Assembly: GCF_006345805.1 (NCBI RefSeq) | Contig: NW_021835385.1 | Coordinates: 1 to 34,794 of the forward strand | From: Octopus sinensis | Lineage: Eukaryota | Length of the DNA: 34,794 nucleotides | Direction: 5' to 3' | Part shown: one piece after another, positions 21,301-34,794 of the stretch | Layout: every line of letters starts with the position of its first letter | How positions within the stretch are numbered: position 1 is the stretch's first letter | Program-made: the position numbers

Positions 21301-24300
21301 TAGTATCAAGAAATTAAACGAACTTACAATTCTTTTAAATTCGAAAGCCCCGTGAATGTACCTTCTTTGATGGTTGCAATATTGTTGTCCGAAAGATCTC
21401 TATAGCAGTAAAGAAAGCGTGAAATAGATTATATGGAAAACATTTGTGATACGACATCAAACACTGTGACTTCAGAATGAAAGGAAGAAAAAGAAGAAGG
21501 ACGAGGAGGAGGAGGAGGAGAAGAAGAAGAACAAGAAGAAGAAGAAGAAGAAGAAGAAGACGGAATGCGGTATGCAAACTCACATCACACATATCCCACT
21601 CACCCTTGTGGAAACATGATCAGAGAGATTATTCATTTTATATCGCTTCATTGTCACAAGCATATTAGAAAACACACAGGAAATATATCTGCAGTTTAAT
21701 TGTATCAGGCCAAATATTCCAGCTTACAAGTACAGTAAGTATTTCAGGTTTACAGATAGAATGTATGTGACAATATTATTCGAATATATATTTTCCGCTT
21801 CCACTTCAGTTGCTCTATTACATAAATAACGTGAAGTGAATGACAAAATTCGAAGTTGAATGATAATATCGAAACACGAAGGAGAATATTGAATTAGGAA
21901 ATGGAGGAGGATGCAAAATATAAAATAAAGGAATAATATAGTCACATTTCACACAGAACTACACTTATATATGAACATACACATATACTTCAGCTAAAAA
22001 TATCTGATGCAAACATGTAAACTCACAAACGTTACCATTTCTAATACAGATTCATATCAAAATCATTGAAATTTGGGGAACAAAAATGAGTTATTGAGAT
22101 GTGAATTGAAACAAAGCAAATACAATAAAAGAACATTATATTTTTCCTATTATTTCACTTTCTCTCTCAAATTCTCTCTTTCTTTCACATTGTCTATCTC
22201 TCTCCGATTTTCTTTGTATCTTCCTAAATCGTGTTCATTCTTCAAATTTGAATTGATTTTGCCCGGAACAGTCTGAAAATTTATACATTTGTGAGCTTAA
22301 TATCAGCATCAATTATTACTTTCGGAAAATAGTATCAAGAAATTAAACGAACTTACAATTCTTTTAAATTCGAAAGCCCCATGAATGTACCTTCTTTGAT
22401 GGTTGCAATGTTGTTGTCCCAAAGATTTCTATAGCAGTAAAGAAAGCGTGAAATAGATTATATGGAAAACATTTGTGATACGACATCAAACACTGTGACT
22501 TCAGAATGAAAGGAAGAAAAAGAAGAAGGAGGAGGTGGAGGAGAAGAAGAAGAAGAAGAAGAAGAAGAAGAAGAAGAAGAAGAAGAAGAAGAAGAAGAAG
22601 AAGAAGAAGAAGACGGAATGCGGTATGCACACTCACATCACACATATTCCCACTCACCCTTGTGGAAATATGGTGAGAGAGATTATTTATTTCATATCGC
22701 TTCATTGTCACAAGCATATTAGAAAACACACAGGAAATATATCAGCAGTTTAATTGTATCAGGCCAAATATTCCAGCTTACAAGTACAGTAAGTATTTCA
22801 GGTTTACAGATAGAATGTATGTGACTATATTATTCGAATATATTTTCCGCTTCCACTTCAGTTGCTCTATTACATAAATACGGAAGTGAATGACAAAATT
22901 CGAAGTTGAATGATAATATCGAAACACGAAGGAGAATATTGAATTAGGAATGGAGGAGGATGCAAAATATAAAATAAAGGAATAATATAGTCACATTTCA
23001 CACAGAACTACACTTATATATGAACATACACATATACTTCAGCTAAAAATATCTGATGCAAACATGTAAACTCTCAAACGTTACCATTTCTAATACAGAT
23101 TCATATCAAAATCATTGAAATTTGGGGAACAAAAATGAGTTATTGAGATGCGAATTGAAACAAAGCAAATACAGTAAAAGAACGTTATATTTTTCCTATT
23201 ATTTCACTTTCTCTCTCAAATTCTCTCTTTCTTTCACATTGTCTCGCTCTCCCCGATTTTCTTTGTTTCTTCCTAAATCGTGTTCATTCTACAAATTTGA
23301 ATTGATTTTGCCCGGTACAGTCTGAAATTTTATACATTTGTGAGCTTAATATCAGCATCAATTATTACTTTCGGAAAATAGTATCAAGAAATTAAACGAA
23401 CTTACAATTCTTTTAAATTCGAAAGCCCCGTGAATGCACCTTCGTTGATGGTTGAAATGTCGTTCATCCAAAGATCTCTATAGCAGTAAAGAAAGTGTAA
23501 AATAGATTATATGGAAAACATTTGTGATACGACATCAAACACTGTGACTTCAGAATGAAAGGAAGAAAAAAGAAGGAGGAGGAGGAGGAGGAGGAGGAGG
23601 AGAAGAAGAAGAAGAAGAAGAAGAAGAAGAAGAAGAAGAAGAAGAAGACGGAATGCGGTATGCACACTCACATCACACATATTCCCACTCACCCTTGTGG
23701 AAATATGGTGAGAGAGATTATTTATTTCATATCGCTTCATTGTCACAAGCATATTAGAAAACACACAGGAAATATATCTGCAGTTTAATTGTATCAGGCC
23801 AAATATTCCAGCTTACAAGTACAGTAAGTATTTCAGGTTTACAGATAGAATGTATGTGACTATATTATTCGAATATATATTTTCCGCTTCCACTTCAGTT
23901 GCTCTATTACATAAATAACGTGAAGTGAATGACAAAATTCGAAGTTGAATGATAATATCGAAACACGAAGGAGAATATTGAATTAGGAAATGGAGGAGGA
24001 TGAAAAATATAAAATAAAGGAATAATATAGTCACATTTCACACAGAACTACACTTATATATGAACATACACATATACTTCAGCTAAAAATATCTGATGCA
24101 AACATGTAAACTCACAAACGTTATTATTTCTAATACAAATTCATATCAAAATCATTGAAATTTGGGGAACAAAAATGAGTTATTGAGATGCGAATTGAAA
24201 CAAAGCAACTACAATAAAGGAACATTATATTTTTCCTATTATTTCACTTTCTCTCTCAAATTCTCTCTCTTTCTTTCACATTGTCTCGCTCTCTCCGATT

Positions 24301-32564: not shown

Positions 32565-34794
32565 GAAGAAGAAGAACGTAGAAGAAGAAGAAAGAAGAAG
32601 AAGAAGAAGTAGAAGAAGAAGAAGAAAGTAGAATAAGAAGAAAAACAACAAGAAGATGAAGGAGGGGAAGAAGAAATTGGAGAATATGAAGAAAAAGAAG
32701 GAGGAGAATTGGGGAGGAGGTGGAGGAGGTGGAGGAGGAGGGTGGGGAGTTTAGGAGGAGGACAAAGGAAGGAATGACTGAGGAGGGGCACCTGGGGGTA
32801 GCAGCTGAAGTACATGAAGAGCAGGAGAATTAAATAAGAGAAAGAATCGGCAGAGAATGGAAAAGAGGGAGACCAGTGACGAAGCAGAAAGTACAGAGAA
32901 GTAAAAGAAGAAAAAGAAGAAGAGAAGAAGAAGATGAGAAGAAGAAGAAGAAGAAGAAGAAGAGAAGAAGAAGAAAAAGAAGAAGAAGAAGAAAAGAAGA
33001 AGAAGAAGAAGAAGAAGAAAAGACAAATTATTAAATAATGGAATAATATAGTCACATCTCACACAGAACTACACTTAGATATTGATATACTCACATACTT
33101 CAGCTAAAAATATTTGATGCAAACATGTAAACTCTCAAACGTTGCCATTTCTAATACAAATTCAAATAAAAATCATTGAAATTTGAGGCTCAAATATGAG
33201 TTATGGTGACTGGAATTGAAACAAAGCAACTGCAATAAAGAAACATTAAATTTTTCCTATTATTTCACATTCTCTCTCAATTTCTCCCTCTTTCTCACTT
33301 TGTGACTCGCTTTCTTACTCCCTCTTTTTATCTTCTTAAGACGTGTTCATTTTACAAATTTAATTGGTCTTGTTTAGAGTGCAATCTGAAAGATTATTGG
33401 GTAATGAGTGTTATATCAGCATCAATTATCACTTTCAAAAATAGTAACAGGAAACTGAACGAACTCACAATATCGTCAAATTCGAAAGCAATCGAGAATA
33501 CACCTCTGTGATGGTTGCAATGTTGTTCGAATGCAGATTTCTATAGCAGTAAAGAAAGAATAATGCAGATTATATGGAAAATATTTGTGATACGACATGA
33601 AACAAGGTGGTTTTAGAACGAAAGGAAGAAAAAGAAGAGAGATAACGAAGAAGAAGAAGAAGGAGGAGGAGGAGAAGAAGAAGAAGAAGAAGAAGAAGAA
33701 GAAGAAGAAGAAAGTAGAAGAAGAAAAAAAAGAGAAAAGAAGAAGAAGAAGAAGGAGAGAAAGAAGAAGAAGAAGAAGGAGGGGAAGAAGAAGAAGAAGA
33801 AGAAGAAGAAGAAGAGAAAGGAGTAGCAGAAGAAGAAGGTATAGAAGAAGAAAAAGAAGAAAATGACGAAGAAGTAGAAGAAGAAAAAGAAGAAGAGTTA
33901 GACGGCGTAGAAGATGAAGATTAGAACAAGAAGAAGCAGAAGAAGTAGAAGAAGAAGAAGAAGAAGAAGAAGAAGAAGAAGACGTTGAAGAAGAAGTAGA
34001 AGAAGGCGACGAAGAAGAAGAAAAAGAAAAAGGGAGGAGGGGAGAAGTGGAGGAGGAGGAGAAGTGATGATGGGGAGAGATGGGAGGAGAAGGAAGAGAG
34101 GTGGGGAGGAGGAGGAGGAGAGAGTATGAGAGAGTAGGGGCAGGACCTGGAGGAGCAGGAGAAGTAGGTCAATGAGAATAAATAAATGAAGTACAAAAAA
34201 GTGAACAAAAAGAAAGTATGGGAATGATTTATGAAAGAGAAGAAGAAAAAGAAAAAGAAGAAGAAGACGAAGAAGTGGACGAGGAGGAGTAGAATTAGAA
34301 GAAAAAAAGGAAGAAGAAGAAGTAGAAGGAGAAGAAGAAGAAGAAGAAAAGAAGAAGAAGAAGAAGAGGAAGAATGAGATGAGAAGAAGAAGAAAAAGAA
34401 GAAGAGGAAAAAGAAGTTGAAGAAGAAGAAAAGAAGAAGATGTAGAAGAAGAAGAAGAAGAAAGGAGGAGAAGAAGAAGAAGAAGCAGAAGAAGACGAGG
34501 AAGAAGAAGGAGAAGAACAAAAACTACAACAACAATAACAAAAATTTTATTTCGGTGGAAGTGTGGATAAATAACCACACGGCACCACAGAATCAAGAGA
34601 ACAATGTGTAACAAAATAGTAGCTAAAACTTATATTAATAGTGCAGATACATACATACATATGAACATACACATATATATTTTCAGGAATAACATTTTTA
34701 TGCAGACAATTATCAATTGACAGTCATTGACATGTTCAGACTCAATCAAATAAATATAACACGAATATGAGAACTGAATATGGTTTACGTAATA

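Follow-up and report, generated by a model that had tools for sequence, protein, structure and literature searches.

The vertebrate adhesion GPCRs ADGRA2 and ADGRA3 have an N-terminus of LRRs and an LRR-CT, followed by an HRM-like domain, GAIN/GPS and 7TM. LRRs have also been reported in the N-terminal parts of adhesion GPCRs from humans, and among octopus-lineage adhesion GPCRs with GPS and 7TM the 'group 3' of Ritschard et al. 2019 is described as having LRRs in 5 of 22 members (PMC6408891). As to gene structure, brown-algal LRR-ROCO genes are reported to encode one LRR per 72-bp phase-2 exon, in tandem arrays with exon shuffling (Zambounis 2012, cited in Teng 2024, PMC11378527). Exonic modularity has likewise been described for the LRRs of Slit, LGR and glycoprotein-hormone receptors (Hoss 2019, PMC6642158), and the introns of gonadotropin-receptor genes are given as phase-2 (PMC11378527).

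Here, we analysed a window of 34,794 nt of Octopus sinensis DNA (contig NW_021835385.1, positions 1 to 34,794), in which an apparent satellite is a row of near-identical 72-nt exons with one LRR each. Modular arrays of 72-nt phase-2 LRR exons are already known; the octopus array stands out as young, variable and in part decayed. It resembles the LRR-ROCO genes, for which splice variants with different LRR combinations and a concentration of change on the concave face are reported (PMC11378527), but those belong to another kingdom and encode a ROC-COR GTPase instead of an adhesion-GPCR-type protein (Roc and COR domains gave no match in the octopus paralogues scanned), while in the octopus whole units share 95-98% identity, several cassettes have decayed and dN/dS is not decisive. 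With the Slit, LGR and glycoprotein-hormone-receptor genes it shares short LRR exons of the same size and phase, which make in-frame skipping possible. Those arrays, in contrast, are old, with diverged introns and a fixed repeat number; moreover, the 7TM of the octopus family is of the secretin/adhesion type (7tm_2) and not of the rhodopsin type, and the family members scanned contained no EGF or LamG domains. The likeness to ADGRA2 and ADGRA3 is one of architecture, with differences: in the PDB, the octopus 7TM lies closest to G/L-type receptors, the place of the Ig domain is taken by a Cys-rich Ly6/uPAR-like module, and the LRR number is variable. Group 3 is comparable in its tandem clustering and signs of positive selection, whereas one-LRR-per-exon arrays and cassette isoforms seem not to figure in the account of it in PMC6408891.

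The cassette array

The ten minus-strand AG...GT exons of the preliminary description, nine of 72 nt and one (G) of 71 nt, were confirmed, those of 72 nt by a motif scan of that strand for AG, 71-73 nt and GT(A/G) with an open frame and the motif L..N.[ILV]. The scan returned 10 rows, nine of them being the 72-nt LRR exons (A-F, H-J); the tenth (18887-18959, 73 nt) is not LRR-like and was discarded. The array and the cassettes, in the order of the gene strand, are as follows.

20840..34794, minus strand: tandem exon-intron units, each made up of an exon, a conserved intron stretch of about 480 nt that includes a 17-nt inverted pair, a (TTC)n tract and an acceptor lead
33469..33540, minus strand: cassette J, 72 nt, open; set against F, it shows indels of -1 and +1, separated by 14 nt, which scramble the G-x-F part
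32312..32383, minus strand: cassette I, 72 nt, intact
30782..30853, minus strand: cassette H, 72 nt, intact; a second cassette type in a different intron context (Pfam LRR_8, E 6.4e-5)
29427..29497, minus strand: cassette G, 71 nt; the loss of one nucleotide brings a TGA into frame, splice sites intact
27564..27635, minus strand: cassette F, 72 nt, intact
26271..26342, minus strand: cassette E, 72 nt, intact
24448..24519, minus strand: cassette D, 72 nt, intact
23406..23477, minus strand: cassette C, 72 nt, intact
22357..22428, minus strand: cassette B, 72 nt, intact; identical to residues 25-48 of the public Octopus vulgaris protein P0001
21328..21399, minus strand: cassette A, 72 nt, intact; the final cassette of the array
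17697..17768, minus strand: eleventh cassette, with a good acceptor and AT in place of the GT donor; of the type that precedes the LRR-CT in paralogues

All ten array cassettes have an AG acceptor after a pyrimidine tract and a GTAAGT or GTGAGT donor. Each begins with A and ends with ATT, so that the junction codon would be TT|A (Leu) throughout, and each holds one LRR between phase 2/2 borders, as had been proposed. The nine open cassettes translate to repeats of 24 residues in which xxIxxGxFxxL comes after LxxLxLxxNxL, as in the extracellular 'typical' class of LRRs. Each of the four single cassettes scanned (A, D, F, H) matched Pfam LRR_8 (E 6e-5 to 9e-3), with scores below the gathering score because only one repeat is present; public relatives of the gene score above it. 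Together with the identity of cassette B to a public protein, these matches place the cassette pattern beyond chance.

The units measure about 1.0-1.9 kb. On the gene strand, each (TTC)n tract has 70-868 nt that fall in windows with a pyrimidine share of 90% or more, and 71-91 nt of conserved sequence then lead up to the acceptor. A repeat finder recovered 7-9 copies of 292-300-nt unit segments at spacings of 1029-2886 nt. Intron identity among A, B, C, D and I is 95-98%, and the units are recent tandem duplicates. A higher-order duplicate (30409-30684 and 34513-34788) is 98% identical, and a further H-type exon is therefore predicted just past the end of the window.

Cassettes also die: G is frameshifted, J is scrambled and the cassette before the LRR-CT has no donor. 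J retains a length of 72 nt because its two indels cancel, and G retains perfect splice sites, so that its default inclusion would give a premature stop. The eleventh cassette, to judge from the missing donor, is probably a dead exon; it has no counterpart in the closest public model.

The gene and its family

Downstream of the array, the window contains further coding exons.

13865..14022, minus strand: predicted LRR-CT exon, 158 nt; acceptor in phase 2 (TT|T, Phe), donor in phase 1
8853..8944, minus strand: first exon of the Cys-rich Ly6/uPAR-like module, phase 1 to phase 0
6719..6902, minus strand: second exon of the module, with a CC....CN motif; its sole Pfam match is a weak UPAR_LY6_2 (E 0.24)
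5612..5694, minus strand: a further coding exon, 83 nt, matching residues 217-244 of P0001 exactly
1468..1518, minus strand: following coding exon, 51 nt, against the 49 nt implied by P0001

The LRR-CT exon is in frame with the cassettes, in agreement with the preliminary description; a second in-frame acceptor lies 51 nt upstream (exon start 14073) and is used by some paralogue models. Its CxC...C...C pattern stands at the expected place and is conserved across 22 family proteins, with zero Pfam LRRCT matches. Searches with this exon gave 22 proteins at E <= 0.01 among 24 candidates, all named Octopus vulgaris or O. sinensis and the best 100% identical, and only 25 matches at E <= 0.001 among 1.84 billion representatives. 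The ectodomain after the LRRs behaved similarly, 26 of its 28 matches being named Octopus (one is unnamed and one has an incomplete name). For the Cys-rich module, a PDB sequence search and an atlas search were both without matches, and an AlphaFold model has pLDDT <50 across this stretch.

Residues 73-244 and 247-262 of P0001 are exactly encoded by exons of the window. The LRR-CT, the Cys-rich module and the two following exons, exact to P0001, are 88-94% identical to the full-length paralogue P0012, in which we found LRR_8, GPS (E 1e-10) and 7tm_2 (E 7e-34), its 7TM being nearest to ADGRG2/L3/G6 in the PDB; a second paralogue, P0020, has a GPS. On this basis the window probably holds the LRR-coding part of a gene from an Octopus-restricted family of adhesion-GPCR type, and the exons encode ectodomain sequence of a family member; a receptor-like gene had been suggested earlier. 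The predicted layout of the family is an LRRNT, a variable number of 24-residue LRRs, the LRR-CT, the Cys-rich Ly6/uPAR-like module, an HRM, GAIN/GPS and a secretin-type 7TM. Automatic annotation names family members 'slit homolog-like' because of the LRR similarity.

Within the window we found no LRRNT, signal peptide, GPS or 7TM; exons for the GPS and 7TM would be expected past position 1. The exon at 1468-1518 carries a 2-nt frameshift and, read from its acceptor, meets a stop after 8 codons. The closest public models (P0001 and its isoforms) are 5'-partial and end without GPS or 7TM; some other family models also end before the 7TM. In view of the missing domains, the frameshifts and the partial models, the window copy may not make a receptor. 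The expectation that repeat masking would hide the gene from annotation held in part: public models do exist, yet the closest show at most 3 cassettes at once (4 distinct ones), compared with 10 in the window.

Cassette variation, copy number and isoforms

Exons of the array differ more than the introns around them. In all ten pairs among A, B, C, D and I the exon distance exceeded the intron distance (Fisher p <= 0.0013 in nine, the pairwise comparisons not being independent of one another), and nucleotide diversity was 0.158 in the exon versus 0.038 in the introns, i.e. about 4-fold. Variable sites amounted to 22/72 in the exon versus 41/486 in the introns (p 1e-6), and the top 72-column window of the diversity profile is the exon. 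Since the intron downstream of cassette E has a different structure, E was left out of the intron comparison; in F, G and J the exon excess is partly frameshift decay. The differences between window cassettes fall on the x positions of LxxLxLxxNxI, and the framework codons are the same down to their third bases. In a set of 35 distinct family cassettes, entropy reaches 1.1-3.1 bits at positions 1, 3, 4, 6, 8, 14, 22 and 23 and stays at or below 0.56 bits at the other 16, ten of which are invariant. pN/pS exceeded 1 in only 5 of the 10 pairs, and exon pS exceeded the intron distance in 9 of 10, with only about 14 synonymous sites; the exon excess may thus reflect intron homogenisation or imported exon patches and not positive selection on new mutations.

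The number of cassettes also varies. The LRR region measures 58+24k or 99+24k residues in 32 of 33 family models with both landmarks, and paralogues have about 2-11 cassettes each. Compared with the closest public model, the window differs at 7 of 92 cassette residues and at 0 of 188 in other exons (p 0.00035), and the cassettes are mosaic between the two; these differences could be due to assembly collapse rather than to alleles.

Could the array be a dead or dying copy, a pseudogenised paralogue, a null haplotype or a mis-assembled repeat without present function? Four lesions would fit such a history (the frameshift and stop in G, the double indel in J, the donor-less eleventh cassette and the +2 frameshift at 1468-1518), as would the transposon fragments in the introns (a weak RVT_1 match), the failure of the window to encode the closest public model exactly and the lack of an exact match for cassette H among 7 candidates. 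However, with 188 of 188 non-cassette residues compared matching the public model, decay, if any, must be very recent; 8 of the 10 array cassettes are intact, their framework and splice sites being conserved; an excess of change specific to exons is unlike neutral decay; and intact paralogues show the same pattern across the family. We regard an array without function as rather improbable; taken whole, the window copy may be a null allele or a paralogue in decay.

Public isoform models differ in steps of whole 24-residue cassettes, both in O. sinensis (409, 385, 361 and 337 aa) and in O. vulgaris (489, 465 and 441 aa). At one O. sinensis locus, 13 isoform models with 5-8 cassettes each form a collinear draw from 12 distinct cassettes, and the O. 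vulgaris isoforms carry D-like, B and A-like cassettes, C-like, B and A-like, C-like and A-like, or the C-like one alone. In arthropod Dscam1, exactly one exon is chosen per cluster, which is enforced by docking/selector RNA pairing. The octopus genes share with it tandemly duplicated cassette exons in a surface receptor and many isoforms, in the octopus as annotation models (for Dscam1, PMC11378527). Mutual exclusion of this type was rejected, given 5-8 cassettes per model and the finding that inverted matches of at least 13 nt in the array form only intra-unit pairs, a local 17-bp intronic hairpin with no docking/selector pairing.

The evidence for skipping consists of public annotation models, and reads of near-identical exons can mis-map. 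All intact cassettes might instead always be spliced in, forming a long solenoid of duplicated exons like those of LGR, gonadotropin-receptor and Slit genes, with the skipping isoforms as mapping artefacts. LRR exons of 72 nt and phase 2 are reported as known and common (Teng 2024, PMC11378527; Hoss 2019, PMC6642158), and nearly the same strong splice sites occur in all cassettes. A route to artefacts is visible too: the O. sinensis cassettes j, l and m are hybrids with one common N-terminal half, and 7 of the 10 window cassettes contain a mid-exon AAG|GT that would permit GT-AG pseudo-introns. Against constitutive splicing, the isoform differences fall exactly on cassette borders, and the cassette order is kept in all 13 O. 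sinensis models and all 4 O. vulgaris models examined. In addition, the splice forms of O. vulgaris are stated to have been built by PASA with long Iso-Seq as well as short RNA-seq reads (PMC10700109), and constitutive inclusion of G would truncate the protein. We consider an invariant LRR domain unlikely, though it deserves serious attention, and favour cassette skipping.

Origin of the diversity and its meaning

The preliminary description had gone further, to a variable receptor system like that of lamprey VLRs. Such an immune receptor, in which cassettes are recombined or chosen, possibly somatically, for pathogen recognition, would share with lamprey and hagfish VLRs the 24-residue LRR modules, the invariant framework alternating with hypervariable concave positions and, as predicted here, an LRR-CT cap; a PDB search with the LRR part includes VLR chains among its matches, and the modular in-phase cassettes, their mosaics and the many isoform models would fit as well. 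VLR cassettes, however, are described as donor segments that are not spliced and that flank an incomplete gene; a gene-conversion-like process is said to assemble them somatically, out of germline pieces that are not functional (PMC13428168). By contrast, all ten octopus cassettes have their own acceptor and donor, in one orientation, ordered within one gene and in frame with the LRR-CT. They are canonical exons of one transcription unit, and the family appears to belong to an octopus-specific adhesion-GPCR expansion whose expression is reported chiefly from the axial nerve cord, the suckers and the skin (PMC6408891); a literature search turned up no cephalopod LRR diversification system. A VLR-like or immune role thus appears very improbable. 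What stands of the earlier proposal is diversification itself, by copy-number change in evolution, mosaic cassettes and isoform models that differ by whole cassettes.

We propose that unequal crossing-over and short-tract gene conversion, for which the invariant framework stretches would provide the homology, expand, contract and reshuffle the array, while selection would keep the cassettes unlike one another. Owing to the symmetric phases, the spliceosome could include or skip cassettes and thereby yield ectodomains that differ in repeat number and surface. The diversity would be germline-encoded and generated by splicing, not somatic. To this overall reading, a modular LRR-exon receptor gene with germline reshuffling and splicing, we assign a probability of about 0.65.

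A bolder idea, which we put forward with considerable doubt, is that the Octopus LRR adhesion-GPCR genes constitute a germline-hypervariable recognition repertoire. Young arrays would be reshuffled by framework-guided conversion and unequal crossing-over, individuals would carry different cassette sets, and regulated skipping would give cell-specific ectodomains, e.g. in sucker sensory cells, neurons or haemocytes. The logic would be that of Dscam or the clustered protocadherins, but built from LRRs.

Several surface-receptor families are expanded in octopuses. The locus shows quick change in the ligand-binding face of one such family, with duplicated units, mosaic cassettes and variation concentrated where binding is predicted, while other parts of the gene stay identical. 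As a practical warning, such arrays are shortened or collapsed in current assemblies and annotations. Public isoform models suggest that splicing uses the same modularity and, if long-read cDNA and population data agree, the family would offer a tractable animal case of LRR receptor diversification outside vertebrate immunity.

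A receptor-type gene of an Octopus family

Downstream of the LRR cassettes, the gene continues along the minus strand through the following exons:

13865-14022, minus strand, LRR-CT exon (phase-2 acceptor, TT/T = Phe; phase-1 donor)
8853-8944 and 6719-6902, minus strand, the two exons of a Cys-rich module
5612-5694, minus strand, 83-nt exon continuing the gene
1468-1518, minus strand, further exon of 51 nt

The phases downstream of the LRR-CT exon are all compatible (1 to 0, 0 to 1, 1 to 0). The LRR-CT exon was located by a CxC pattern together with the list of open reading frames; the regular expression N.[WFLY].C.C matched nothing relevant in the window, and at E ≤ 10 neither this exon nor the first Cys-rich exon had a Pfam match. 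Exons were searched individually, and whole-protein analyses were run on public models. As a 52-residue query, the LRR-CT exon retrieved 22 proteins at E ≤ 0.01 among 24 candidates, every one of the 22 bearing the name Octopus vulgaris or O. sinensis. The top match, at 100% identity, was P0001, a 5'-partial O. vulgaris model. The window exons encode residues 73-244 and 247-262 of P0001 exactly, which makes the window O. vulgaris or a very near neighbour of it. Full-length relatives such as P0012 combine LRR_8 with a GPS motif and a 7tm_2 domain, which bears out the receptor-type gene proposed in the preliminary description. The 7TM region of these relatives is nearest, among solved structures, to ADGRG2, ADGRL3 and ADGRG6.

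Is this gene family found outside octopuses? An exhaustive, profile-free comparison of the LRR-CT exon with 1.84 billion representatives gave 25 matches at E ≤ 0.001, and the 19 that were looked up comprised 16 Octopus proteins, one flea protein, the latter a repeated short-stretch match, and two proteins with no name. The post-LRR ectodomain of P0012 gave 28 matches, and the 26 with full names were all from Octopus (vulgaris, sinensis, bimaculoides). Judged by these searches, the family looks restricted to Octopus. Part of an earlier account already describes an adhesion-GPCR expansion specific to octopuses, in which 5 of 22 members have LRRs and expression is reported mainly from the axial nerve cord, suckers and skin (Ritschard et al. 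2019, PMC6408891).

The Cys-rich module, which lies between LRR-CT and the remaining ectodomain, has 12 cysteines and a CC....CN end and is putatively Ly6/uPAR-like; paralogue models carry no copy (P0003), one, or two (P0002). Its sole Pfam match was weak (E 0.24), there was no match among PDB sequences or in the atlas, and the stretch is poorly predicted in an AlphaFold2 model of the family protein P0004 built on 20 family sequences (mean pLDDT 51, below 50 across residues 166-276). The LRR-CT exon has a second possible start, at an in-frame acceptor 51 nt further upstream (14023-14073, minus strand); the 17 extra residues are present in the paralogue models P0012, P0007 and P0020 and absent from P0001-P0004.

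The introns hold further elements. In the intron that precedes the LRR-CT exon, about 230 nt are enclosed by a 48-nt perfect inverted repeat (14623-14670 / 14901-14948), probably a foldback or MITE-like element of small size. Between the 5.6 kb and 1.5 kb exons lies a large microsatellite-rich palindrome (2073-2911 / 3652-4400, 740-nt spacer), with arm segments of 202 nt and 175 nt that are 100% complementary, flanked by a 112-nt direct repeat (438-549 / 4471-4582, 96% identical); the structure is a foldback element or else an artefact of the assembly. Intronic open frames at 9719-10571 (minus strand) and 19102-19759 (both strands) resemble retrotransposon reverse-transcriptase remnants, just one with a weak Pfam RVT_1 match (E 0.017).

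The cassette array and its isoforms

A tandem array extends from ~20.8 kb to the window end. The repeat finder resolved unit segments of 292-300 nt in 7-9 copies at a spacing of 1029-2886 nt (families D7, D8, D9 and D11), separated by (GAA)n tracts of widely differing length; plus-strand poly-Glu/Lys/Arg open frames across these tracts were set aside as low-complexity read-through. A scan of the minus strand for AG, 71-73 nt and GT(A/G), restricted to open frames that contain an LRR-like motif, returned ten rows, nine of them the 72-nt exons already named in the preliminary description, while the tenth (18887-18959, 73 nt) was discarded as not LRR-like. Two more cassettes are:

29427-29497, minus strand, cassette G of the preliminary description, 71 nt, with a 1-nt deletion leading to TGA
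17697-17768, minus strand, eleventh cassette, with a good acceptor and AT in place of the GT donor

All ten exons A-J start with A and end in ATT, and they have pyrimidine-rich acceptors and GTAAGT or GTGAGT donors. To judge by the terminal bases of each exon alone, all exon-exon junctions would give TT/A (Leu), and the frame would be kept whichever of the 72-nt exons are combined. The scan, splice sites and exon ends thus confirm ten LRR exons of shared phase, and the exon at 13865-14022, the LRR-CT exon to which they were proposed to splice in frame, has a fitting phase-2 acceptor.

In J, -1 and +1 indels 14 nt apart cancel, which keeps the 72 nt and scrambles four residues, the G-x-F motif among them. 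H has an intron context unrelated to that of the other units, is alone among the cassettes in having an uninterrupted open frame of 40 aa or more (single cassettes: 23 aa), and matched none of 7 candidate public proteins exactly. On the downstream side of H, in the orientation of the gene, a stretch of 276 nt recurs at 34513-34788 with 98% identity (family D18); the array therefore contains a higher-order duplication, and a further H-type exon is expected ~90 nt past the window end. The eleventh cassette sits in the 7.3-kb stretch separating cassette A from the LRR-CT exon and belongs to the type found just before LRR-CT in paralogues, several of which retain an equivalent; in the closest public model, an A-like cassette is joined directly to LRR-CT and the eleventh is skipped.

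Public models vary cassette by cassette, which gives genuine though indirect support to a probable alternative splicing of the LRR array. At one O. sinensis locus, 13 RefSeq isoforms of 409, 385, 361 or 337 residues are collinear picks of 5-8 cassettes from 12 distinct ones, with the variation concentrated toward the N-terminal end of the array, and a second O. sinensis locus has isoforms of 525, 501 and 477 residues. Isoforms at the O. vulgaris locus nearest to the window have 489, 465 and 441 residues, with the combinations D-like/B/A-like, C-like/B/A-like, C-like/A-like and C-like alone. According to part of the report on that annotation, the alternative forms were derived by PASA from Iso-Seq and RNA-seq, and transcripts average 1.36 per gene (PMC10700109). 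The isoforms could possibly be mis-mapping artefacts, as reads from near-identical exons are easily misplaced. Three O. sinensis cassettes are hybrids with a common N-terminal half and a breakpoint at a mid-exon AAG/GT site; this site is found at exon position 36 in 7 of the 10 window cassettes (A-G), so that a GT-AG pseudo-intron could, formally, run from the middle of one cassette to the middle of another.

The introns themselves show recurrent features. Ahead of every array exon (window 21484-34517) lies a (TTC)n-rich tract on the gene strand (GAA on the plus strand), which begins 71-91 nt upstream of the acceptor, has 70-868 nt lying in windows that are ≥ 90% pyrimidine, and explains most of the differences in intron length (957-1791 nt). 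Within units, a 17-nt perfect inverted pair occurs with its arms about 145 nt apart (22819-22835 / 22980-22996 and 23854-23870 / 24020-24036), and single arms lie at 20923, 21931, 29000 and 33041. The predicted 17-bp intronic hairpin has an MFE of -37.2 kcal/mol (z -2.9). The pair may represent the terminal repeats of a small MITE-like insert, and pairing across an exon is conceivable for arms that lie in separate introns. A search of the window for docking/selector pairing of the kind that enforces mutually exclusive splicing found none.

Divergence, copy number and mosaicism of the cassettes

The alignment of the ten units took in each exon with 90 nt before it and 420 nt after it; E was excluded from the intron comparison because its downstream intron differs structurally. 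Among A, B, C, D and I, exon distances of 5.6-23.6% compare with intron distances of 2.0-5.3%, the exon being the more diverged in all 10 pairs, 9 of which have Fisher p ≤ 0.0013. Nucleotide diversity was 0.158 in the exon versus 0.038 in the introns, variable sites made up 22/72 versus 41/486 positions (p about 1e-6), and the top 72-column window of a sliding profile was the exon itself. For F, G and J the exon excess was smaller and came in part from indels.

Variation falls on codons 1, 3, 4, 6, 8, 11, 14, 16, 22 and 23 of the window cassettes, that is, on the x positions of LxxLxLxxNxI and a few in the second half, and framework codons are unchanged even at third positions. Across 35 distinct G-x-F-type cassettes from stored family models, entropy reached 1.1-3.1 bits at positions 1, 3, 4, 6, 8, 14, 22 and 23 and was at most 0.56 bits at the remaining 16, ten of which are invariant. 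A dN/dS reading is not decisive, with pN/pS above 1 in just 5 of the 10 pairs. With about 14 synonymous sites available, exon pS was above the intron distance in 9 of the 10 pairs; the exons thus seem to have a history that is older than, and different from, that of their introns. Concerted evolution of the units, from which hypervariable patches escape, is consistent with this, and so are short conversion tracts that bring in diverged patches; either route implies that cassette diversity is maintained.

Among 65 stored family models, 33 have both the LRRNT landmark and LRR-CT, and in 32 of these the landmark-to-landmark length is 58+24k or 99+24k residues, equal to about 2.4 to 11.4 cassettes; the models are not independent, since many are isoforms of shared loci. 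One model of 278 residues lies outside both series. The 99+24k series stems from the alternative LRR-CT acceptor 51 nt upstream, which the window has too.

At the closest public locus, D-like, C-like, B and A-like cassettes follow one another as in the window, with 3, 2, 0 and 2 residue differences from D, C, B and A. Differences affect 7 of 92 cassette residues and 0 of 188 residues in other exons (p = 0.00035), and two of the public cassettes are exact mosaics with halves from different window cassettes. These differences may be allelic variation arising from conversion or unequal exchange; they may equally stem from a very young paralogue or from repeat collapse in one assembly.

State of the window copy and known LRR exon arrays

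The exon at 1468-1518 has 51 nt versus the 49 implied by an otherwise identical public protein and consequently, read from its acceptor, stops after eight codons; the allele could be null, the copy could be a paralogue, or the assembly could be wrong here. Cassette G, if included, leads to a stop. Together with the scrambled J and the donor-less eleventh cassette, these lesions suggest that the window copy may be a null allele or a paralogue in decay, or may have been assembled imperfectly, although the identity of 188 of 188 non-cassette residues to the public model counts against long decay. The window holds no LRRNT, signal peptide, GPS or 7TM.

Modular LRR exons have been reported before. 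Parts of PMC11378527 describe brown-algal ROCO genes in which each 72-bp phase-2 exon encodes one LRR, exons are shuffled, cassettes are used alternatively and change falls on the concave face, and also mention phase-2 LRR exons in gonadotropin receptors. Part of Hoss et al. (PMC6642158) shows that the LRRs of human families, Slit among them, are strictly modular by exon. The octopus exon-intron units are unusually young. VLR cassettes, according to part of a review (PMC13428168), are copied somatically into an incomplete gene, whereas the octopus array consists of ordinary exons and is not VLR-like in mechanism. Of the variable-LRR receptor system first envisaged, a modular, copy-number-variable and probably alternatively spliced array is supported, and an immune, VLR-like system is not. 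Nor is the array hidden from annotation by repeat masking, as had been expected: public models contain it, although it is under-represented. In the full-text literature, with few subscription journals covered, we found no description of this architecture in cephalopods.

The octopus array joins the known modular arrays of 72-nt phase-2 LRR exons, here within an adhesion-GPCR family. That it serves octopus adhesion receptors as a germline-hypervariable, splice-diversified repertoire of LRR recognition is a tentative reading, to which we assign a probability of about 0.2.
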